From: Promethearchaeota archaeon
GTDB lineage: Archaea > Asgardarchaeota > Lokiarchaeia > Sigyniarchaeales > SOKP01
NCBI GenBank assembly: GCA_048938895.1
Contig: JBHLLU010000001.1
Location: 64,001-128,000 of the forward strand
Length of the DNA: 64,000 nucleotides
Direction of reading: 5' to 3'
In this document: positions 3,552 through 28,195 of the stretch, one piece after another
Position numbering within the stretch: the stretch's first letter is position 1
How the letters are laid out: each line of letters opens with the position of its first letter
Translations under genes and position numbers: made by a program
The notes under the pieces: model-generated
The model's input: the letters and a program-made list of their open reading frames with translations, nothing else
Databases searched by the model: none
What the model was told of the DNA's origin: nothing

Positions 3552-4106
3552 TTAGTTCTCCTTTAAAAATTCATAACCTGCATTTAAAGCTTTTAAGTTT
3601 ATTTCTATAAATCGAAGTGGAATAGATTCGGAGATAGATTTTTTAATTGCATTTAATGAAACAAGCTTAGTTTTTTTAATTAAAGCACCCAGCATTATAA
3701 TATTCACCAATTTTAGGTTTTTAAATTCTTGAGCAATACTATTAGCAGGTATTGGAAAGGTCATATCTGTAATATTTTCTAATTTTATCAGATCAGAATT
3801 TATAAATCTTAAACCCGAAGATTTCACCTGATTTGAGTAAAAATTATATGCATCATCACTATAAGCTACTAATATATCAACTTCAGATTCGGTAGGATAA
3901 GACGTTAACTCCCCTTCTGCAATAATTATATCACTTTTTACACGAGTACCTCTTTGCTCAGGACCATATGACTGAGTCTGTATGGCGTTTTTATTATCAT
4001 AAAGAGCTGCTTTACCTAAAATTATACATGATAAAATAACACCCATTCCACCGATTCCACAGAATCGAATGTTAACTTCCCCTTGCTCTTTTCTCCCAGA
4101 ATTCAT
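3552..4106 (-). CDS. korC: 2-oxoacid:ferredoxin oxidoreductase gamma subunit (2-oxoglutarate type)
   Basis: IRFCGIGGMGV, TQSYGPEQRG and NIIMLGAL motifs; last gene of a D-A-B-C operon. Confidence 0.9.
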   Translation of the reverse strand: MNSGRKEQGEVNIRFCGIGGMGVILSCIILGKAALYDNKNAIQTQSYGPEQRGTRVKSDIIIAEGELTSYPTESEVDILVAYSDDAYNFYSNQVKSSGLRFINSDLIKLENITDMTFPIPANSIAQEFKNLKLVNIIMLGALIKKTKLVSLNAIKKSISESIPLRFIEINLKALNAGYEFLKEN

Positions 4107-4953
4107 TTTTACTTGTTTCTTTTAATTTTTTGTATAATTCGTTAAAGGAGGGTTTATCAATATCAACTATTTCCCCAACGATTATTTTTCCTTCATAAGT
4201 ACCTGTGAAAGATTCTTGGTAGTCTTTCAATACACGAGCAGATGTTTCATCTTGTACTTTTTTTGAATATTTTATAGTTTCATCTAAAAAATACCTCAAC
4301 TGTTCTCTTGGATTTTTAAATTGTTTCTTATTTACAGGACAAGCAGAAATAATTTCAATGAATGAAAACCCTTTTTTTTGTAAGGCTTTTTTTATAGATC
4401 TAATCACTTGGAAAGAGTGCGCTGTAGTCCAACGTGCTACATAGACAGCCCCTGCTGCTTTGGCTAAAAACGAGAGATTGAATGCAAATTCAAAATTTTT
4501 ATATCGTGAAGTGCTACTTATTTCTCCTACAGGCGTGGTTGGTGATAATTGTCCTCCAGTCATACCATATGTTTCATTATTAATGCATATTACCAAGATA
4601 TCAAGGTTCCTTCGCACGGCTTGGAGAAAATGGTTTAAACCAATAGCCGCTAGATCTCCATCCCCGCTAAAAACGATTACCTTTAAATCAGGATTGGTGA
4701 CCTTTATACCTGTAGCAAATGCTATAGCACGTCCATGAGTAGTGTGGATTCCATCAGTATCAATATATGCAGGTAATCTGGATGAGCACCCAATTCCAGA
4801 GACAAAGACCAAGTCATTTTTGGAAATGTTTAAGTCATCAATCGCACGAATAGTATAGTTTAAAATTTGACCATTCCCACAACCAGGACAGAACATTGTA
4901 GGCATTAAATCTTTCCTTAAGTATTCATTTAATAATTCAGTCGATGATCTCAT
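4072..4953 (-). CDS. korB: 2-oxoacid:ferredoxin oxidoreductase beta subunit
   Basis: FCPGCGNG, SGIGCSSR, HTTHGRA and GDGD...NNETYGMTGGQ in canonical order. Probable start MRSSTELL at 4953 (ORF track start 5016). Confidence 0.92.
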   Translation of the reverse strand: MRSSTELLNEYLRKDLMPTMFCPGCGNGQILNYTIRAIDDLNISKNDLVFVSGIGCSSRLPAYIDTDGIHTTHGRAIAFATGIKVTNPDLKVIVFSGDGDLAAIGLNHFLQAVRRNLDILVICINNETYGMTGGQLSPTTPVGEISSTSRYKNFEFAFNLSFLAKAAGAVYVARWTTAHSFQVIRSIKKALQKKGFSFIEIISACPVNKKQFKNPREQLRYFLDETIKYSKKVQDETSARVLKDYQESFTGTYEGKIIVGEIVDIDKPSFNELYKKLKETSKNEFWEKRARGS

Positions 4954-6133
4954 TACTTTTTTCACCCTCTTTAATTTTTTTAAAAATATCTTCAGGAGAG
5001 GGAATAGCTCCTCCAATTCGACTTATTCTGTCGACATCACAATCCCCAATAGCATGTTCTTTTATTTTATGATATATCTGTCCGAGATTCATCTCTACCA
5101 CAATGAACTTTTTAATTCTTTGAGCCATTTCAGAGACAATATCATGGGGGAAAGGCCATATCGTAATTAATCTTAAATATCCAACTTTTAATCCTTCCTT
5201 ACGTGCTCTTTCAACTGCCATAAGTGTAGTTCTCGAAGATATACCATAGGATACAATAATAATTTCAGCATCTTCAATGTATTTTTCTTCATAAGTAATA
5301 ATATCTTTTCTGTTATCAGCAATTTTTTCATAAAATCTTCTCACGAGTTGTATATGAGTTTTTTCGTCATCTGTGGAGGGATAAGCTTTCCAATCATGAG
5401 TCAATCCTGTTAAATACGTATGATATCCGTTTCCAAATTTATCCATCTCTGGTACTTTTGTAGGATGAGAATAGCCTGTCCTAAAAGGATGATATTTTTC
5501 TTTTTCAATTGTTACTGGTACTCTTTTGACAATATCAACTTCTTTTTGAAAAGGAATAACTAATTTTTCTCTTGTATGAGCTATAGCTGCGTCGGATAAT
5601 ATTATTACTGGAACTCTATATTTATCAGCTAAATTAAAAGCTCTAATGGTCATCCATAAGTTTTCTTGTACACTATTCGGATAGACAGCAATTACATAAT
5701 GATCTCCATGAGTCCCCCAACGTGCTTGCATTATATCTCCTTGTGCTGCTTTTGTGGGTTGACCCGTAGAGGGTCCTGATCTTTGAACATTGACAATTAC
5801 GCAAGGAGTTTCTGTCATACATGCATATCCAATGTTTTCTTGCATGAGAGAAAAGCCAGGACCAGATGTAGCAGTCATTGTTCTATAATTATTCCAGCTT
5901 GCCCCTATTATCGCTGCCAATGAGCTAATTTCATCTTCCATCTGTAAAGAGTATCCATCCTCTAGGATTGGTAAATACTTCATCATCAATTCCAATATCT
6001 CAGTTGCAGGAGTAATTGGATATCCTGCAAAAAATCGACAATTTGCTAACAAAGCCCCATATACTATAGCTTCATTGCCCGTGGCAAATTGTAATTTGGG
6101 TGTTATTAATTCGTTAACTGTTGGACTTTTCAT
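4937..6133 (-). CDS. korA: 2-oxoacid:ferredoxin oxidoreductase alpha subunit
   Basis: GNEA, AGYPITPATE, QMEDEI, TATSGPGFSLMQE and QRSGPSTG motifs. Probable start 6133 (ORF track start 6154). Confidence 0.93.
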   Translation of the reverse strand: MKSPTVNELITPKLQFATGNEAIVYGALLANCRFFAGYPITPATEILELMMKYLPILEDGYSLQMEDEISSLAAIIGASWNNYRTMTATSGPGFSLMQENIGYACMTETPCVIVNVQRSGPSTGQPTKAAQGDIMQARWGTHGDHYVIAVYPNSVQENLWMTIRAFNLADKYRVPVIILSDAAIAHTREKLVIPFQKEVDIVKRVPVTIEKEKYHPFRTGYSHPTKVPEMDKFGNGYHTYLTGLTHDWKAYPSTDDEKTHIQLVRRFYEKIADNRKDIITYEEKYIEDAEIIIVSYGISSRTTLMAVERARKEGLKVGYLRLITIWPFPHDIVSEMAQRIKKFIVVEMNLGQIYHKIKEHAIGDCDVDRISRIGGAIPSPEDIFKKIKEGEKSNEIID

Positions 6134-6137
6134 TTGT

Positions 6138-6344
6138 TCAATCCTCCTCTTCAACAGTTATTGCCATTTCTGGACAAATCAATTCACATTGTTTACATGA
6201 TGTGCAAGATGTTTCATTATCGACTCTAGGTAAGAAATATCCCTTTTTATTCAAGATATCAGATTCAACTAATACTTTTTTTGGGCAAATTTCAATACAA
6301 TATCCACAACCCTTACAATAATCTTCAAGTATTTGTATTGTCAT
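6138..6344 (-). CDS. korD: 2-oxoacid:ferredoxin oxidoreductase delta subunit (2x[4Fe-4S] ferredoxin)
   Basis: CKGCGYCIEICP and CTSCKQCELICP; first gene of the kor operon. Confidence 0.9.
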   Translation of the reverse strand: MTIQILEDYCKGCGYCIEICPKKVLVESDILNKKGYFLPRVDNETSCTSCKQCELICPEMAITVEEED

Positions 6345-18315: not shown

Positions 18316-20244
18316 ATGATTGGTACATTTCAAGGAATTCCCATTGAAGGTTTATCTTATCAAACTCCTACACTTTCAGGAATTATGGATATAAAAGGTC
18401 AATTTCGTTATAATGCAGGAGAATCTGTGGTATTCTCAATTGGTAAATTGATTCTTGGAGAAATTATTGGCAAAGAGACGATATCTCTAATCGATATTGT
18501 CCCAGGAGCAGAGAATTCCAGTGATCAACGTGTTATAAATTTATGTGTCTTATTACAGACGCTAAATGAGGAAGGCAATATAAACAAGGGAATTCGAATA
18601 TCAGAAAATGTAGTTACTATTGTTTCAGAATTTAGTGGACAACTGAATTTTAATCAACCTCCTAAAGCATTTCGATCCGATCCTAAATTGAGAGCTTTAG
18701 TAGAAAAATTGAATTCTAAGAAATTATTTCCAGATACTGGCAATTTTGGTATGCGAACCATACGATACCCTTCAGCAGCTCAAGCTAGTTTTGAAGCAAG
18801 TTTAGATCCGAAGCATTTGGAATCAGACTGCCACAAAATCGTAGAAATATCATCAGGTAAAATTAATGGTTATGCTACTAGCAACAATACATTTACATGG
18901 TTAGGTATTCCTTATGCTAAAGCCCCAGTAGGAGATCTGCGTTGGAAACCACCGCAAAAAATTACTTCGTGGGAAGGAGTACTCGATTGCACCCAGTGGG
19001 GAGATCAATGCGGTCAAGGAGATTTGGGACCGGCTAGTTTTGGCAATTTGAGTGAAGATTGTCTGAACCTGAACGTTGTAGCACCCAAAAGTATTGGCAA
19101 CAAGAAATTACCTGTAATGGTCTGGTTTCATGGGGGAGGATTTCATGCCATGTCAGCCAACAATTTTACGTATAATTACACAGCTCTTCCTGCCAAAGGT
19201 GTAATCCTTGTCAGCGTAAATCATCGGCTTGGTCCATTAGGATATATGGCTCATCCAGCATTAACTGCGGAATCAGAGAATGGAGTTTCTGGGAACTATG
19301 GTCAATTGGATTTGATTGCAGCATTGAAATGGGTTAAAGAAAACATTTCCATATTTGGAGGTGATGCTGATTGCGTAACAATTTTTGGTGAATCCGGCGG
19401 TGGTGGTAAAACCTTTTATTTGATCGTTTCTCCCCTTGCCAAAGGACTATTTCATCGAGCAATTATTCAAAGTGGGGTAGGTCTAATAGGTGAACGACAT
19501 ATTCCACGTCTAAACGAGGCTGAAGCCCGAGGAGTGACTCTCGTGGAAAAAATGGGTATTAAGGGCGATAAGGATGTACTTAAAAAAATGAGGGAAAAAC
19601 CCTGGCAGGATATAATAAAAGCTAGTCAAGAGATAAATTTTAACGATATACGTCTAGTTACAATCGATAATTGGTATCTTTTGGATGACCCAGCTTCTGT
19701 GTTTGAACAAAAACGGCATAACGATATACCTATTATTATCGGTGCATGTCGCACAGACATGGCTTATGGAATGATAAAAGGGATTACGGATTGGGCCAGT
19801 TTGATAAGTAAAAACAGTCAATCAAACATATATACTTTTCTTTTTGGACATGTTCCTACAAGATGGCGAAAGGAAGGTGTTGTGGCATTTCATGGAATAG
19901 AAGTTCCATATGTTTTTGGTTGTCATCGAGTAGGCCTAAAAACCCCTACTATGCTGAATCTCTCTAGAACTGGAGGTGCTAAACAACCAGATCCAGGCAT
20001 TGATGAAATGGATGATTATATAGCTAATAAGATGACAGACATGTGGACCCAATTTGCTAAAACAGGTGATCCCAATACAAAAGGAAAAATTACTGATAAG
20101 ACCACATGGAACCCTTACAACAGTGCGAAAGACAATTTTCTTCTTATAAGTGACGATGAGGTCCCTCTGTCGATGGAAACAGGTGTTGCTGAGCACTATG
20201 AACCACCACCGAAAGACACACCCCCATTAATACCGGTTAGATAA
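18316..20244 (+). CDS. Type-B carboxylesterase with extra ~170-aa N-terminal domain
   Basis: LGIPYAKAPVGDLRWKPP, SEDCLNLNV, WFHGGG, GNYGQLD, FGESGG (catalytic Ser) and FHGIE (His). Confidence 0.9.
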   Translation: MIGTFQGIPIEGLSYQTPTLSGIMDIKGQFRYNAGESVVFSIGKLILGEIIGKETISLIDIVPGAENSSDQRVINLCVLLQTLNEEGNINKGIRISENVVTIVSEFSGQLNFNQPPKAFRSDPKLRALVEKLNSKKLFPDTGNFGMRTIRYPSAAQASFEASLDPKHLESDCHKIVEISSGKINGYATSNNTFTWLGIPYAKAPVGDLRWKPPQKITSWEGVLDCTQWGDQCGQGDLGPASFGNLSEDCLNLNVVAPKSIGNKKLPVMVWFHGGGFHAMSANNFTYNYTALPAKGVILVSVNHRLGPLGYMAHPALTAESENGVSGNYGQLDLIAALKWVKENISIFGGDADCVTIFGESGGGGKTFYLIVSPLAKGLFHRAIIQSGVGLIGERHIPRLNEAEARGVTLVEKMGIKGDKDVLKKMREKPWQDIIKASQEINFNDIRLVTIDNWYLLDDPASVFEQKRHNDIPIIIGACRTDMAYGMIKGITDWASLISKNSQSNIYTFLFGHVPTRWRKEGVVAFHGIEVPYVFGCHRVGLKTPTMLNLSRTGGAKQPDPGIDEMDDYIANKMTDMWTQFAKTGDPNTKGKITDKTTWNPYNSAKDNFLLISDDEVPLSMETGVAEHYEPPPKDTPPLIPVR

Positions 20245-21142: not shown

Positions 21143-22390
21143 ATGATTCTTAATAGGAAAGCAACAAAAGATGAAAAATTCAAATCTACTTCTAATAGAA
21201 CGAAAGGTCTTGATAAATTGATAGATGTACAAAATGCATATAGAATCACAGATAGATTAGCCTTTCCCAGACTTATTGGTTCTAAAGGTGAAAAAAAGGC
21301 AATTGAGATAGTAGTTGATGAATTTAAGAATGCAGGGTTTATTTCTGTTAATCGTCAAAAATTTATGACTTCTTTTCATAATTTTATATACTCCCGATAT
21401 ATATTTCTAATACTTGGGACAGGATTGATTTTCTTGGGATTGTCCTATTATATTAATGTTTTTTTAACATTAAGTTTAATCTTTTTATCTCTTTTTATCT
21501 CCTTTAAAGCCCTTCAAACATCTACAAAAATGAAATTAAGTAGAAATAAGAGTAATAATTATGAAACAGAAAATATATGGGTAAATTTGGAAAATAAAAA
21601 TTCCAATAGTAGAGTTGTTTTTATGGCTCATTGGGATTCTAAATCACAAACATTTCCCTCTACTATGCGAGTTATGATATTTTTAATTTTTTCGTTTGGG
21701 GCTCTCCTATTATATTTGATCTTTTTCATTTTAAGCATAATTAAAATTTTTGTCAATTTCAATATACCTATATTAAAAAATGTTTTATTAGATGTTTGTC
21801 TAATAATTGCTCTGATTGGAGGACTCAACTATTTTAATAAAACTGGAAATTTTTCTCCGGGTGCTTTTGATAATGCTGCAGGTGTAGGGGTTATTATAGA
21901 ACTCGCAAGATATTATAAAATAAATCCTCCTCATAATCTTGATTTGACATTTTTTAGTCCTGGTTCAGAAGAGTTAAATTTAGGAGGTGCTATTCGATTT
22001 ATAGAAAAACTGAAAAACCAATTGAGTAAAGATAAAACTTTTTTTATTAATTTGGATTTAATTGGGGGTGCAGAAATAATTAGATTAACTAGTTCATATG
22101 GAATTCCACGAAAAATTTCTTCGAAGAAATTGAATGCGCTATTCAAAGAAAGCGCTAAAGAGAATCAGATAGAAATGAAAGACATTTATTCACCTACAGG
22201 TTCATGGTCTGATTTCATGCCGATTGTACAAGAAGGATTTGAAGCATGTTGGCTAGGTTCTCAACCTGGATTAAAATATGTTCATACAAAGAAAGATAAT
22301 ATGAGTTTAGTATCCAAAGAAGGTCTTAAGAATATTATTACTTTATGTATCGACATTGTTAAGAAATTAGATCTTGAGTTTTGCCAATAA
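21143..22390 (+). CDS. Membrane-embedded M28-family metallopeptidase
   Basis: AHWDS, PGAFDNAAG, SEELNLGG, NLD, SDF and HTKKD ligands, with hydrophobic TM hairpin insertions. Confidence 0.85.
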   Translation: MILNRKATKDEKFKSTSNRTKGLDKLIDVQNAYRITDRLAFPRLIGSKGEKKAIEIVVDEFKNAGFISVNRQKFMTSFHNFIYSRYIFLILGTGLIFLGLSYYINVFLTLSLIFLSLFISFKALQTSTKMKLSRNKSNNYETENIWVNLENKNSNSRVVFMAHWDSKSQTFPSTMRVMIFLIFSFGALLLYLIFFILSIIKIFVNFNIPILKNVLLDVCLIIALIGGLNYFNKTGNFSPGAFDNAAGVGVIIELARYYKINPPHNLDLTFFSPGSEELNLGGAIRFIEKLKNQLSKDKTFFINLDLIGGAEIIRLTSSYGIPRKISSKKLNALFKESAKENQIEMKDIYSPTGSWSDFMPIVQEGFEACWLGSQPGLKYVHTKKDNMSLVSKEGLKNIITLCIDIVKKLDLEFCQ

Positions 22391-22486
22391 TTAAGCTAAA
22401 CCTATAAAATATTGTATAAAACTTAAATTAGTTTCTAAGATTTATTTTATCGATATTCATTTAAAATAAAATACTAGTTATTGAAA

Positions 22487-23473
22487 ATGTTAACTCCAGA
22501 ACAAGTTAAAAAAGTATTAAAGGATCACGTAATTAACCTACGGTTTCATGCCAGAGGAGGCCAAGGAGGCGTAACAGCATCAAATTTATGTGTAGAAGCT
22601 TTTTACGGCTATGGTGTGTGTCAACCACTTTTTGGTGCCGAAAGGATGGGGTCTCCTACGGAAAGTTATGTAAGGCTCTCTGCTAATGAAGATTTGGTAC
22701 GGTCAAATGAACAAGTTTATGGGCCACATTACGTCTCTGTATTAGATCCTTCGTTATTGGGAGAGATTGATGTTACTGCGGGAATGCCTAGAGGAGGGTG
22801 GTTAATTGTAAACACAGTTTTGAATCAACAAGAGATTCAAGACATTGTTAATCGGCACGATATCAATGTTGCTACTATTGATGCAACGAGAATAGCTCTG
22901 GAGGTTTTAGGTAGAAATATCACGAATACTATTATTTTGGGAGCATTAATCCGTGTTTCTCATATTTTTTCTGTTGAGGAGTTGTCTGATGCAATTGCAA
23001 GAAGATTTAAAGGTGAACTTGCGGGGAAAAACATCCAAGCAATTAAACAGGCAATTGAAGAAACATGCGTTTATGATCTCGGGATTGATGCTGATTATTC
23101 TGTTGATACTAAAGTCCCTTGGCAACAAGTTAAACCAGGACTCCCTGGATACAAAGACCTAGACAAATCTGGAGTCTGGTATTGTGATGAGGATGTCATT
23201 GAGGTTGGAAGCTCTCAAGTAATGACAGGAACGTGGGGAGAGTGGGAAATCATTTGGGATGAGGAAAAGTGTACAGACTGTGCTCAATGTTGGTACATAT
23301 GTCCCGATTTCGCCATAATTAGGGAAAAAGGTGAGGATGGCTTATGGCATATGGCAGGTATAGATAGCTTCCATTGTAAGTCATGCCAGAATTGTTTAAA
23401 AGTATGTCCAGTAGAGGCAATAAGTAAAGAATTAAAACAAGGCCCGGCGTCATGTGCGGTGCCTGAAGAGTAA
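22487..23473 (+). CDS. porC: POR-type 2-oxoacid:ferredoxin oxidoreductase fused gamma-delta subunit
   Basis: RFHARGGQGGVT, FGAERMGSP and NTIILGAL (gamma), plus C-terminal CTDCAQCWYICP and CKSCQNCLKVCP (delta). ATG at 22487 or TTG at 22481. Confidence 0.88.
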   Translation: MLTPEQVKKVLKDHVINLRFHARGGQGGVTASNLCVEAFYGYGVCQPLFGAERMGSPTESYVRLSANEDLVRSNEQVYGPHYVSVLDPSLLGEIDVTAGMPRGGWLIVNTVLNQQEIQDIVNRHDINVATIDATRIALEVLGRNITNTIILGALIRVSHIFSVEELSDAIARRFKGELAGKNIQAIKQAIEETCVYDLGIDADYSVDTKVPWQQVKPGLPGYKDLDKSGVWYCDEDVIEVGSSQVMTGTWGEWEIIWDEEKCTDCAQCWYICPDFAIIREKGEDGLWHMAGIDSFHCKSCQNCLKVCPVEAISKELKQGPASCAVPEE

Positions 23474-23486
23474 AGGAGGTAAAAAC

Positions 23487-24716
23487 ATGAGTATTGAACC
23501 AATGAGAATATTTTTTAATGAAATTAAAGAACCAATAGAAACTACCATGATTGGAAATTATGCTGTTGCGGGAGGTGTGACTCAAACCGATCCTGATGTC
23601 ATATGTGCCTTTCCGATAACGCCTCAAACTCAATCAGTTGAAGGATTATCAGATGTAGTTCATCATGGGAGACTTAAAGCAGCCTTCATAAACGTCGAAT
23701 CAGAACTTGCCGCAATAAGTTATTCAACCGCAGCATGTGCTGCGGGAGCAAGAACCTTTACAGCAACAGCATCACAAGGTTATCTGTTAATGACTGAAGC
23801 TTTACCAATGGCAGTGGGGTGGCGAGTCCCTTTAACAATGCTAATTAGCGCTCGAGCGTTTAATGCGCCAAATTTATCAATATGGAATAGTTGGGAATTT
23901 ACCCAAACTAATTCAGAATTGGGTTGGAATTGTTTTGTGTCTGAAAATGTTCAAGAAACCTATGATGCTGCTATATTATCAGTAATGATTTCAGAGGATT
24001 CACTATTCCCAACAATGTTTGTTCATGATGGTTTTATTATTTCACATTCTGTACAGAAATTAACTTTAATTCCCGATGAAATTGTTAGAAAATTAACTCC
24101 CAAGAAACCAAGACACCACATTTCTACAGAAAAACCAGGAACTTGGGGAGGAATTGTAACACCTGATTATTTTATGGAAGGAAGGAAGAGACTTGATGAG
24201 GAAAAACAACCCGTTTTAAGAATAATGAAGAATTCATTTGATGAATTTGCGAAAGCAACTGGACGTCAATATGATCTAATTGAAACATTCAACTTGGATA
24301 ATTCTTCTAAAACAGCTTTTCTCACAATGGGATCTATGTGTGGAAATATTATCAGTTGGATGACAAAAAATAAAGATATTGGACTTATTAAAATAAGAGC
24401 TTATCGTCCGTTTCCTCATGAACAACTGCGAAAAATAGTTGAAGAGCATAACATTGAGAAAATTATTATTTTAGAGAAGTCTGATGCATTAAATGGAATG
24501 TTACCTCCATTTTCAATGTCAATTGCTTCAGCATTATATCCTATTGGCACTCTATTTAGAAGCTTTGTTGTTGGTTTGGGAGGAAGAGATGTTACACGAG
24601 ACGAATTTGCTATTGCTAAAAAGAAAATGGCCACAGTAACAGATATGAAAGGGAAACTTTATATGTATCTCGGTGTGAGAGAAACAAAATCGAATATATT
24701 GGGAGTGGAGTTATAA
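23487..24716 (+). CDS. porA: POR-type 2-oxoacid:ferredoxin oxidoreductase alpha subunit
   Basis: FPITPQT, ESE, TATASQG, DGFIISH, RPFP and GLGGRD motifs. AAGGAGGT RBS before the ATG at 23487. Confidence 0.9.
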   Translation: MSIEPMRIFFNEIKEPIETTMIGNYAVAGGVTQTDPDVICAFPITPQTQSVEGLSDVVHHGRLKAAFINVESELAAISYSTAACAAGARTFTATASQGYLLMTEALPMAVGWRVPLTMLISARAFNAPNLSIWNSWEFTQTNSELGWNCFVSENVQETYDAAILSVMISEDSLFPTMFVHDGFIISHSVQKLTLIPDEIVRKLTPKKPRHHISTEKPGTWGGIVTPDYFMEGRKRLDEEKQPVLRIMKNSFDEFAKATGRQYDLIETFNLDNSSKTAFLTMGSMCGNIISWMTKNKDIGLIKIRAYRPFPHEQLRKIVEEHNIEKIIILEKSDALNGMLPPFSMSIASALYPIGTLFRSFVVGLGGRDVTRDEFAIAKKKMATVTDMKGKLYMYLGVRETKSNILGVEL

Positions 24717-24717
24717 A

Positions 24718-25806
24718 ATGTCAGGACCAGAGAGAAATTTAATTAGAATCGAAGATCTCTTGGCGAGAGAAGGAAAGAGTAATGTGTTATTCCTTAATTA
24801 TGATAATGAAGCGTTCATGAATACAGGGATTCAAGAAAGTGGGGGAACTCCCCCATATGCATCAACAACAACAGGCCCCGCAGGAGAGAAAATACCTGGT
24901 AAAGTAGGAGTAAAGCAGGACTTAGTAACACCTTTTGGTTTTTATGGCTCAAATTCATTGTTTTTAGCAACACTCAATCCCGCATATCCCAATGATTTTA
25001 TGGGAAAAATTATTGAAGCTCTAAAAACAAACGGATCTGCATTCGTTCAAGCCTATTCTGATTGTATGAGAGGTTGGAGGCATGCTTCAGAAGATGCTGT
25101 AAAGATCTCAAAACTAGCTACAGATTGTGGTTATTGGCCTCTATATACAATACGTGTGAAGGATGGTATTCCTACATTTTCATACTATCGTGGGTTAGAT
25201 ATTGATAAAGACAAGTTTATTGAGTATCTTAGGTCTATGGGCCGATTTAGACATTTGTTTCGGCCAAAATTCATGGAGAAAGAAATTGATGATATCATTT
25301 ATTATACAGAGCATAGGAATAATAAATTGAAAGCTTTGATCAAAACTTTTGGAGCAGATAAACCTATCGACGTATATAGAGTTAATCGTAAATCTTTAGA
25401 ACCTCAGTCTCATTTGTATCCAGGACATGGTCTATGCCCCGGATGTGGCGCTGGTATGGTTCTAAATCAACTAGCAACAGCTGCTCAAGCCGTAGCAGGT
25501 AATAATATTGTGTATGTAAATAATACATCTTGTACAGAAGTATCCACCTCAAAAGACAATGTAACTTCTTGGAGAGTACCCTGGGTTCATCACCTCTTTG
25601 AATCAGGTGCCACAATAGCAGAAGCAATAAGTACTGCATATAAGATTCGAAAATCCAAAGGTCAATTTGATGGGGAGGTTCCCTATGTGATTCATATAGG
25701 GGGTGATGGCTCAACTTATGATATCGGATTTCAATTCCTGAAAGCAGCTTTAATCAGAACAAGTACTATGGTTGATATGAATATTTACTTAAAAAATCAA
25801 AAGTAA
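24718..25806 (+). CDS. porB: POR-type oxidoreductase beta subunit, circularly permuted
   Basis: YDNEAFMNTGIQES (normally mid-protein) is at the N-terminus, while GHGLCPGCG, SCTEV, PWVH..FE and GGDGSTYDIGFQ (normally the N-terminal half) are at the C-terminus. Confidence 0.88.
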   Translation: MSGPERNLIRIEDLLAREGKSNVLFLNYDNEAFMNTGIQESGGTPPYASTTTGPAGEKIPGKVGVKQDLVTPFGFYGSNSLFLATLNPAYPNDFMGKIIEALKTNGSAFVQAYSDCMRGWRHASEDAVKISKLATDCGYWPLYTIRVKDGIPTFSYYRGLDIDKDKFIEYLRSMGRFRHLFRPKFMEKEIDDIIYYTEHRNNKLKALIKTFGADKPIDVYRVNRKSLEPQSHLYPGHGLCPGCGAGMVLNQLATAAQAVAGNNIVYVNNTSCTEVSTSKDNVTSWRVPWVHHLFESGATIAEAISTAYKIRKSKGQFDGEVPYVIHIGGDGSTYDIGFQFLKAALIRTSTMVDMNIYLKNQK

Positions 25807-25847
25807 TTTCTTCTAAATTATTTATTTCTTTTATTCTTATTTTCTTT

Positions 25848-26618
25848 ATGGCAATTAAAATTGAAAAGAATTATCCTGTTTTTACAGTTATAATCGATAA
25901 TCCTGAAGTAAAAAACGCTGTTGATCAACAAACTGCGAATCAATTAGCAGATGCTTTTCGAATATTTGATTCAGATGAGAAAGCCTTAGTTGCTGTTTTA
26001 TGGGGTGCTAATGAAACTTTTTGTTCAGGGGCAAATCTAAAAAGTATTGCCGAGGGAGGGGGAAATCGAAAAGAGAGAGACGGAGATGGTCCAATGGGTC
26101 CAACTAGACTACAATTGTCTAAACCTGTGATTGCTGCTGTAGCAGGATATGCAGTTGCTGGAGGTCTTGAGCTTGCCTTATGGTGTGATATGCGAGTTGT
26201 TGAAAGAAATGCTGTGTTTGGAGTTTTCTGTAGAAGATTTGGAGTACCTTTGATTGATGGTGGGACAGTTCGTCTTCCAAGACTTATTGGATTAAGTAGA
26301 GCTCTTGATATGATTCTTACTGGACGACCAATAAATGCTGAAGAAGCATATGAATGGGGACTTGCTAATAGGATTGTCGAAATTGGTCAATCTAGACATG
26401 AAGCCGAGAAACTTGCTAATGAAATAGCGAATTTTCCTCAAACCTGCATGAGAAATGATCGAATGTCAACTTATAATCAGTTAGGTTTAGACATAAAAAA
26501 AGCAATGAACCAAGAATTTGAATTTGGATTGAAGACCTTGGAAACTGGAGAACATATTCTAGGAAGTAAGACTTTTACACAAGGTAAAGGAAAACATGGA
26601 AGTTTTAATAACAATTAA
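25848..26618 (+). CDS. Crotonase / enoyl-CoA hydratase family protein
   Basis: FCSGANL, KPVIAAVAGYAVAGGLELALWCD and GVPLIDGGTVRLPRLIG motifs. Confidence 0.92.
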   Translation: MAIKIEKNYPVFTVIIDNPEVKNAVDQQTANQLADAFRIFDSDEKALVAVLWGANETFCSGANLKSIAEGGGNRKERDGDGPMGPTRLQLSKPVIAAVAGYAVAGGLELALWCDMRVVERNAVFGVFCRRFGVPLIDGGTVRLPRLIGLSRALDMILTGRPINAEEAYEWGLANRIVEIGQSRHEAEKLANEIANFPQTCMRNDRMSTYNQLGLDIKKAMNQEFEFGLKTLETGEHILGSKTFTQGKGKHGSFNNN

Positions 26619-26647
26619 ATAAATTAAAATAATATTGTGGTTCAATC

Positions 26648-27064
26648 ATGATATTTTTTGAAGAATTTAAGGTTAAAACACCAGAAAGAGAAATCCTTCT
26701 TGATATAACACCTGAAATTAGTAAGAGAGTAAGAAATTCAAATATAAAGGAGGGTGTTTGTAGAATTTTTATACCTCATACAACAGCAGGGGTTACAATA
26801 AATGAGAATGCTGATCCTTCCGTAAAAATGGATATTCGTTATTTCTTCGAAAAATTAATTCCGAAGGGTGGAAGATTAGGATACTCTTTTAGACATAGAG
26901 AAGGAAACTCAGATGCTCATATAAAATGCACTCTGACAGGACATACTGTTGAAATCTTGATTCATGAGAAAAAGTTAATGCTTGGAACATGGCAAGGCAT
27001 TTTTTTTGCTGAGTATGATGGCCCCAGAAATAGAAGCGTCTATGTACAAATTCAAGGGGAATAG
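26648..27064 (+). CDS. yjbQ: YjbQ / UPF0047 family protein
   Basis: PHTTAGVTINENADP, HREGNSDAHIK, LGTWQGIFFAEYDGPR. Confidence 0.92.
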   Translation: MIFFEEFKVKTPEREILLDITPEISKRVRNSNIKEGVCRIFIPHTTAGVTINENADPSVKMDIRYFFEKLIPKGGRLGYSFRHREGNSDAHIKCTLTGHTVEILIHEKKLMLGTWQGIFFAEYDGPRNRSVYVQIQGE

Positions 27065-27118: not shown

Positions 27119-28195
27119 TTGGTGTTTAAATTGGAATTAGGAATTAACTCATTAGCTAGTTTAGCAAAAATCAAAAAGAACGTGACCAGAAAAAGAATAT
27201 CTAGTTATGATGTTACTGGGGCAAATATGGATAATGTACAAATTGACAGCAAGGGAAAATATGAAATTTGTAATATTGAAAACGCTGGAATAATCAAGCA
27301 TGTTTGGATGACTCTCGCATCAAAAAGCCCAAATTACTTAAGAGAAGTATTAATTAGAATGTGGTGGGATGGAGAAGCAAATCCTTCGGTTGAGTGTCCA
27401 ATTGGTGATTTTTTTGGAGTTGGACATGGAAAAACCGTAAACTTCTGGAGTTTACCATTATCAATGGGGCCTCAAGATGGAAAAGGATTTAATTGTTTCT
27501 TCCCAATGCCTTTCTCCAAGAATGCTAGAATCGAAGTTGAAAATCAAAGTGAGGAAATATTAATTTGCTATTTTTATATTGATTATGAAGAACATGATGA
27601 AATAGATTCCTCTTTTGGTAGATTTCACGCCTCTTGGAACAGATCAAACCCATGTGAAGGTCAAGATTACGAATATTTAATGAAGAGAAATTTAAAATCA
27701 GAAAGATTTACTAAAAAAAATGTAAGTCATGAAAATGATTATTTAGTCTTAGAGGCGGAGGGTGAAGGCCATTTTGTTGGTTGTCATTTGGATATCCATA
27801 ATTTGTTTGAAACTGAAAGATTTAATTGGCCAGGTGAGGGTGATGATTTTATTGAAATCGATGATGGTAAAATTATTCTCTATGGAACAGGGACAGAAGA
27901 CTATTTTTGTGGTTCTTGGTGTCCTACCCAATTTTATTGTTCTCCTTATTTTGGAGTTACTTTACCGGGTGGGAAAAACTGGAGTGGGAAAATCTCTTAT
28001 TATCGTTATCATATTGAAGATCCTGTATATTTTCATAAGAATATTAATGTGAAAATTGAACATGGGCATGCTAATCAACGTTCAGACGACTGGTCTTCAA
28101 CAGCGTATTGGTATCAAACAGAACCTCATAAAACTTTTAAATTATTACTTCCTGTAGATGAGAGATTACCTAGAGAAGAGCCTAAAGAAATATAG
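27119..28195 (+). CDS. DUF2961 / glycoside hydrolase family 172 protein
   Basis: HVWMT, WDGE.PSVECPIGDFFG, FPMPF, GEGD, GTGTEDYF, EHGHAN and AYWYQ motifs. Confidence 0.88.
   Translation: MVFKLELGINSLASLAKIKKNVTRKRISSYDVTGANMDNVQIDSKGKYEICNIENAGIIKHVWMTLASKSPNYLREVLIRMWWDGEANPSVECPIGDFFGVGHGKTVNFWSLPLSMGPQDGKGFNCFFPMPFSKNARIEVENQSEEILICYFYIDYEEHDEIDSSFGRFHASWNRSNPCEGQDYEYLMKRNLKSERFTKKNVSHENDYLVLEAEGEGHFVGCHLDIHNLFETERFNWPGEGDDFIEIDDGKIILYGTGTEDYFCGSWCPTQFYCSPYFGVTLPGGKNWSGKISYYRYHIEDPVYFHKNINVKIEHGHANQRSDDWSSTAYWYQTEPHKTFKLLLPVDERLPREEPKEI

Follow-up and report, generated by a model that had tools for sequence, protein, structure and literature searches.

The closest solved relative of the protein described here is PorB of Methanosarcina acetivorans (PDB 9bt4 chain C; E 5.9e-46), and the second-best is the β subunit of Moorella thermoacetica oxalate oxidoreductase (PDB 5c4i, 5exd and 5exe; E 4.5e-43), which has the canonical order of its parts. 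In such β subunits of 2-oxoacid:ferredoxin oxidoreductases (OFORs), the two halves of the motif for thiamine diphosphate (ThDP) and Mg stand close together, with GDG followed after ~26 residues by N. Here, we analyzed a 64,000-nucleotide stretch of the genome of a Promethearchaeota archaeon (positions 64,001 to 128,000 of contig JBHLLU010000001.1; hereafter, the window), in which a gene at 24718..25806 on the + strand (362 aa plus stop) encodes a PorB-type β subunit with GDG placed 299 residues downstream of YDNE. An earlier note, made from the sequence of the window, had described this protein as a circularly permuted β subunit whose ThDP-binding motif is divided between the two chain ends, and the comparisons below bear that description out.

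To place the permuted chain on its canonical counterparts, we compared it with single sequences, family models and solved structures. Throughout, β residues ~18-210 matched the canonical C-terminal half and residues ~227-352 the N-terminal half; a full-length collinear alignment to canonical PorB, which the earlier note had named as the result that would speak against permutation, did not appear, and two swapped stretches were obtained instead. Thus, in BLASTP against two canonical PorB paralogues from the same genome, query residues 16-193 aligned with residues 115-292 and query residues 222-352 with residues 2-123. The NCBIfam PorB model (NF008819) matched in two stretches and scored 212.3 bits, below its cut-off of 405; its best stretch paired aa 18-196 with profile positions 116-288 of 300. 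With Pfam TPP_enzyme_C (PF02775), the last half of the profile alone was matched, and this at the N-terminus of the chain (profile 72-150; 22.4 bits, cut-off 21.9). The PDB chains 9bt4_C and 5c4i_C each aligned in two stretches, again with the order swapped. Using a hidden Markov model (HMM) of canonical PorB, in which GDG is position 102 and DNE position 130, two swapped matches were found in 13/13 diverse members of the permuted family (sequence ~18-210 to HMM ~120-300 and sequence ~224-350 to HMM ~5-124), and when the β sequence was re-ordered, it gave one collinear match over HMM 9-296 with 273 bits. The cut lies at HMM ~120-124, past the helix that follows GDG but ahead of the strand leading to YDNE, i.e., inside the GDG..N motif, which is where the earlier note had put it. 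A gap-free alignment of the 31 N-terminal residues to the canonical GDG..DNE segment, made by eye, was dropped; HMM homology is found only from ~residue 18.

Following the chain from its ATG, the first 17 residues (24718..24768) form a tail that is unalignable to the canonical HMM, in which a short strand (6-10) and a helix (11-15) are modelled and in which I9, D13 and L15 are conserved in 77, 69 and 73 of 82 sequences, respectively. This tail is followed by the part that corresponds to the C-terminal half of canonical PorB (aa 18-210, HMM 119-299; 24769..25347), whose first element is the β strand preceding YDNE. It contains the second half of the ThDP/Mg motif, YDNEAFMNTGIQES (aa 28-41; 24799..24840), with D29 at 24802, and C116 in DCMRGW (25063..25065), cysteine 4 of the proximal [4Fe-4S] cluster; in alignments to the same-genome paralogues and to solved chains, C116 pairs with the PCPxGW cysteine of canonical PorB. 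A linker of ~15 residues (aa ~211-226; 25348..25395), visible as the gap between the two HMM matches, then joins the old C-terminus to the old N-terminus, as had been proposed. The part that corresponds to the N-terminal half of canonical PorB (aa 227-352, HMM 9-125; 25396..25773) carries CPGC, whose C240 and C243 are the first two cluster cysteines (25435..25446), cluster cysteine 3 at C272 in SCTEV (25531..25533) and, starting with G329 at 25702, GDG as the first half of the ThDP/Mg motif (aa 329-331; 25702..25710), from where a helix runs to ~354 in the predicted structure. The C-terminal tail (aa 348-362) occupies 25759..25803. All of these features lie on the + strand, and the residue coordinates given in the earlier note agree with ours, as does its uninterrupted reading frame, which runs through 362 aa from 24718 to 25806. 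The note's one slip concerns the C-terminus: beyond ..AALIR (R347), where it had the protein end, the chain continues for 15 residues (348-362).

We then assessed conservation in an alignment of 82 homologues reaching down to 52% identity. Both half-motifs and all four Fe-S cysteines proved to be invariant, in keeping with the claim that they are retained: GDG 329-331, C116, C240, C243 and C272 were found in every sequence, together with R347 and with Y28, D29, N30, E31, A32, N35, T36, G37, Q39 and S41. The cofactor residues were also invariant in 53 operon-derived sequences. Around the linker, L207 and Y220 were present in 82/82 sequences and Q230 in 81/82, and N355 of the tail in 66/82. No stops occurred in any of 72 β genes (the one in the window plus those of 71 loci). 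The ratio of nonsynonymous to synonymous substitution rates (dN/dS), estimated from the 86 of 2556 pairs of these genes with dS of 0.1-1.0, which are not independent of each other, was 0.056 for the whole gene. It was lowest in GDG plus the following helix (aa 329-347; 0.007) and in the YDNE block (0.017), with 0.050 in the C-tail, 0.098 in the N-tail (aa 1-26) and 0.104 in the linker (aa 201-232).

The earlier note had pointed to other Asgard genomes as the place to look for the same permutation, and collinear homologues of the permuted β were carried by 130 genomes in a sample of 400 from the phylum (E <= 1e-60), several of them single-contig. Carriers made up 128 of the 160 genomes in families f1-f7, which cover the family, order and class of the window, compared with 1 of 239 elsewhere. 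This lone outlier (G075, C23:2002-2799) is a 266-residue piece with 80% identity in a genome of a different class, and another carrier contig (L058) is labelled as a Nanopelagicaceae bacterium metagenome-assembled genome (MAG); both look like misbinned Asgard contigs. A relative is encoded in 121 species-representative genomes; the top 80 of these sequences are full length, with 77-94% identity. In a protein cluster search, 108/120 listed clusters were 55-90% identical to the query with a coverage of 93% or more, and every listed cluster with a source name came from Asgard MAGs. A search of 1.84 billion protein representatives gave 1358 matches at E <= 0.001. Within the best 150 of these, P0122 alone was full-length and collinear (53% identity), P0123 was a permuted fragment, and five were short pieces at 61-83% identity; the remaining listed representatives mostly matched in two stretches like canonical PorB, and a few in one stretch covering the query's first half only. 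Four candidates for further permuted forms (P0198, P0255, P0218 and P0184) turned out on reading to be canonical-order fragments or fusions. Together, these results show that the rearrangement is real and that some 130 related genomes have conserved it under purifying selection.

To examine how the permuted form arose, a FastTree phylogeny of 99 sequences was built, comprising 13 permuted and 86 canonical tips. The 13 permuted sequences formed one clade (support 1.0), whose stem measures 0.83 substitutions per site, against an average crown depth of 0.46. By distance, the nearest canonical tip was P0128, in a Bathyarchaeia PorB cluster, and the canonical paralogues from the same genome, on contigs C163 and C130, ranked only 74th and 63rd of 86; the permuted gene is thus not a recent copy of either. 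A sister group of P0245 and P0176 (support 0.947 with midpoint rooting) was not relied on, given the long stem. The simplest reading is one event in the ancestor of this Asgard class. Duplication, fusion and truncation are the usual route to circular permutants, and an origin by tandem duplication, fusion and loss of both outer parts is the most likely one here. BLAST places canonical residues 115-123 at both ends of β; on the other side, support for a duplication is thin, with a terminal overlap of just 0-7 positions on the canonical HMM, and no tandem or intermediate porB forms were seen among the best 150 of the 1358 matching representatives. The best-scoring canonical relative, P0126 (852 aa, Candidatus Altiarchaeales), is a canonical-order PorB with a ~535-aa intein (Pfam Intein_splicing 133-667 and LAGLIDADG_3) inside the ThDP motif, after the strand and just before CYDNE. 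As a clue to the origin, this intein was rejected, since it belongs to Altiarchaeales and its site is ~8-10 residues off the permutation cut.

The permuted β gene stands at the end of a set of three OFOR genes on the + strand. The first encodes a fused γδ subunit of 330 aa (22481..23473), with a POR gamma domain at aa 26-193 and a two-[4Fe-4S] ferredoxin domain at aa ~257-316 (Pfam POR and Fer4; NCBIfam PorC 166 bits and PorD 56 bits), and the second a PorA-like α subunit with POR_N and PFOR_II domains (23454..24716; PorA_Arch 301 bits, cut-off 550). The listed α reading frame, with GTG 23454 as its start codon, shares 20 nt with the end of the γδ gene. Alignments to α homologues mostly begin at query residue 10-12 (M12, ATG 23487), and in several loci a stop stands just before that point; ATG 23487 is probably the true start. 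A single base separates the porA TAA (24714-24716) from the β ATG at 24718, the spacing that the earlier note had reported, and a purine-rich, Shine-Dalgarno-like stretch inside the end of porA (24701..24710, +; 8-17 nt before the ATG) may have a role in coupled translation. The porA gene ends 3-12 nt before β in 77 of the 80 close loci, the other 3 being without upstream sequence. Of the 80, 67 have the γδ gene, which immediately precedes porA in 65 and lies ~2.4 kb farther away on the upstream side in two; upstream DNA is missing in the remaining 13. In 20 distant loci, where β is 52-60% identical, α is adjacent in 19 and γδ in 17. The proposed link to porA therefore holds, in that the order γδ, α, β is conserved across close and distant loci.

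We next modelled the subunit and its contact with α. AlphaFold2, run with the 82-row alignment, predicted β with a mean predicted local distance difference test score (pLDDT) of 84.0 and a predicted template modelling score (pTM) of 0.88. The pLDDT was 89-95 over aa 11-30, with an N-terminal strand at 21-29, and 92-95 over aa 211-230, with a linker strand at 212-221, and a C-terminal helix (338-354) extended from GDG. Foldseek at E <= 0.001 returned OFOR β subunits and domain VI of PFOR exclusively, at about half coverage and with a query TM-score (TMq) of 0.43, because its aligner is sequential and cannot score a permuted match. For the complex, α (53-row alignment) and β were modelled with the [4Fe-4S] cluster and Mg included. 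The median interface score (ipSAE) was 0.88, compared with 0.00 for the best of 3 controls; the mark used for this score is reached by 58/80 solved complexes and 2/110 mismatched pairs. Contact agreement between runs was at least 97%, and the pLDDT of the partner at least 90. In the modelled interface, β contributes residues 262-347 plus residues 355 and 357-358 of the tail, and α residues beside the invariant ESE motif contact the β helix after GDG. Since solved α-β OFOR complexes exist, the score may partly reflect likeness to them, and it speaks for likeness of the interface, not for binding.

From the conservation, the operon context and the α-β complex model, we infer that the permuted β is functional, and we consider it likely that it is a working, naturally circularly permuted subunit of a three-gene OFOR composed of fused γδ, α and β. 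The chain starts with the strand and the YDNE..NTG loop that canonically come after the GDG helix, continues with the usual C-terminal half and its fourth cysteine, passes through the linker into the N-terminal half with CPGC and the third cysteine, and closes with GDG, the helix after it and the C-terminal tail of 15 residues. Folding would bring the two chain ends together, so that D330 and N30 could jointly bind the Mg-diphosphate of ThDP; both residues are presumably Mg ligands, by analogy with solved OFORs and from the alignments to canonical PorB, and the motif halves suggest a cofactor site built from both ends. ThDP would lie between α and the permuted β, with α providing the pyrimidine-binding half of the site, and C240, C243, C272 and C116 would hold the proximal [4Fe-4S] cluster, from which electrons would pass to the two γδ clusters and on to ferredoxin. 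The best family scores, to archaeal PorA and PorB, suggest a pyruvate-type substrate, all of them being below every curated cut-off.

Several observations weigh against a working subunit. The family scores are well under the curated cut-offs (PorB 212 versus 405; PorA_Arch 301 versus 550), and the loops that should wrap ThDP and Mg (aa 32-43 and 52-65) were modelled with a pLDDT <50, presumably because their ordering depends on the cofactor. In the single-contig genome G279, β and α are ~540 kb apart, a stop falls inside the match in 5/130 carrier genomes, and 12/120 listed clusters are shorter forms of 246-282 aa. Four of these short forms were read, three of which have an internal Met as their start and lie on contigs 17-148 kb long, and in one Helarchaeota MAG, β is divided into two neighboring calls, 223 and 104 aa in length (P0310 and P0311). 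The short, split and stop-bearing cases may represent local decay, frameshifts or pseudogenes in some lineages, or assembly errors. In G279 (C1; L111 and L118), β stands alone with its upstream neighbors on the other strand, and the cognate α has 64% identity.

The low family scores and poorly modelled ThDP loops, along with the long stem relative to crown depth, would also fit a decaying or repurposed non-catalytic relic, such as a scaffold that no longer binds ThDP, and the same genome has other OFORs with a canonical β, a redundancy that could permit loss of function. We regard such a relic as improbable, given that GDG, YDNE..NTG and the four cysteines are invariant over the 82 sequences even at 52% identity, that dN/dS is as low as 0.007 and 0.017 on the two motif halves, and that the cognate α and γδ genes are co-conserved.

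Slightly less probable still is a split subunit, in which the chain is cut in the linker after translation, or an internal start is used, to give two β fragments. The linker does connect two units able to fold side by side, and the database calls that start at an internal Met, as well as the MAG with two adjacent calls, would suit this idea. Yet the reading frame is continuous in 72/72 genes, and the linker itself is selected (dN/dS 0.104), has invariant L207 and Y220 and is confidently modelled as a helix end and a strand. The internal-Met calls, moreover, begin at three sites within the first half and none at the linker. These calls (P0108, P0109 and P0092) are 246-268 aa long.

To check the assembly of the locus, we used Logan contigs. 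In run X5, from a different study, record 19 (24009-25224, 48 differences) spans the porA/porB junction and record 21 (25195-26700) spans the linker and the 3' end of β, and pieces from run X1, which may be the source sample, cover the same places with 0 differences (24491-25085 and 25174-25847). Three short joints with sides of 25-30 nt were seen in runs X1/X2 (24520 to 24787, 24594 to 24798 and 25925 to 26277). The loose ends at 24798 and 24834, like the short joints, fall on the conserved codons of YDNE..NTG, and their translations resemble the canonical paralogue on contig C130; they are therefore cross-matches. The X5 contigs bridge the junctions within 24700-25810, the interval in which the earlier note had asked whether a misassembly breakpoint lies. 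An assembly artefact, either a chimeric contig or a mis-joined tandem porB, to which a draft source genome of 174 contigs with 7.5% contamination and the short joints might have lent some color, can consequently be dismissed as next to impossible, the same architecture being present in 130/400 genomes, single-contig ones included, and at 80 loci from many projects, and the junctions being bridged in independent data.

In search listings of the open literature, we found no description of a permuted OFOR β subunit or of a permutation within the ThDP-binding domain, which agrees with the earlier note's impression that such a PorB was undescribed. In public databases, the records of the permuted β are named either "hypothetical protein" or by a generic β-subunit name, the former in NCBI because family models expect the canonical order, and metabolic reconstructions may score the permuted OFOR complex as incomplete. 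This matters since OFORs are placed, in sections of one published account (PMC7015854), at the center of a proposed amino-acid-fermenting, syntrophic Asgard lifestyle. The permutation also provides a clean, clade-defining rare genomic change within one Asgard class, as well as a natural test of how far the ThDP fold tolerates altered chain connectivity, with GDG..N apparently able to be supplied by two chain ends. We give a small but real chance to the idea that the permutation is adaptive and not neutral: with the termini at the ThDP/Mg site and the tail on α, cofactor loading, exchange or gating might differ from that of every known OFOR, and the complex might possibly have its own substrate range within the amino-acid fermentation of this Asgard class. 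The long stem and the persistence of the gene beside canonical OFORs fit such a functional shift.

Downstream of the OFOR genes, on the + strand, are an enoyl-CoA hydratase gene (25848-26618), with orthologues in the same position in 40/80 close loci, and a UPF0047 (YjbQ-like) gene (26648-27064). Some UPF0047 proteins are credited with thiamine-phosphate synthase activity, which would make this a curious neighbor for a ThDP enzyme. Among the other neighbors on the + strand (21143-22390, 18316-20244 and 27119-28195) are genes for an M28 peptidase with a membrane anchor, for a carboxylesterase and for a DUF2961 protein, and in many of the close loci, the M28 peptidase gene likewise precedes the OFOR genes. 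The window also contains a second OFOR set of KorA/KorB/gamma type on the - strand (3552-6154), with α at 4937-6154, β at 4072-5016 and a γ-like gene at 3552-4106. As the earlier note had observed, this KorB-type β has the canonical order.

We finally compared the permuted subunit with known systems. With M. acetivorans PorB (9bt4 chain C), it has in common the ThDP motif residues, the four cluster cysteines and a PorA-type α partner. The halves, in contrast, are swapped, so that query 228-347 corresponds to chain residues 5-115 and query 22-192 to residues 118-281, and the sequential fold alignment accordingly reached 208 columns (TMq 0.43; Foldseek E 1.5e-10). The subunit in the window further differs from 9bt4 in its new linker and two new tails, and the γ and δ subunits of the window are fused. 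Such a fusion recalls oxalate oxidoreductase, the third subunit of which combines γ-like and ferredoxin domains in one chain, and the γδ protein matched the NCBIfam oxalate oxidoreductase δ model over aa 54-315 with 67.5 bits (cut-off 230). Since this and the scores for the corresponding β (181 versus a cut-off of 590) and α (143 versus 500) models are far under the cut-offs, nothing points to oxalate as the substrate. Closer to hand, contigs C163 and C130 of this genome encode canonical PorB paralogues that, like the KorB-type β at 4072-5016, belong to the same superfamily, share its motifs and each adjoin their own α gene; the PorB paralogues, with canonical order, are 32-35% identical to the permuted β in the better half. 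In a wider frame, ThDP enzyme families have their pyrimidine-binding (PYR) and diphosphate-binding (PP) domains in differing orders or on different chains, and the site tolerates varied connectivity. Those known rearrangements shift whole domains, whereas the cut in the permuted β falls inside the PP domain and within the GDG..N motif itself.

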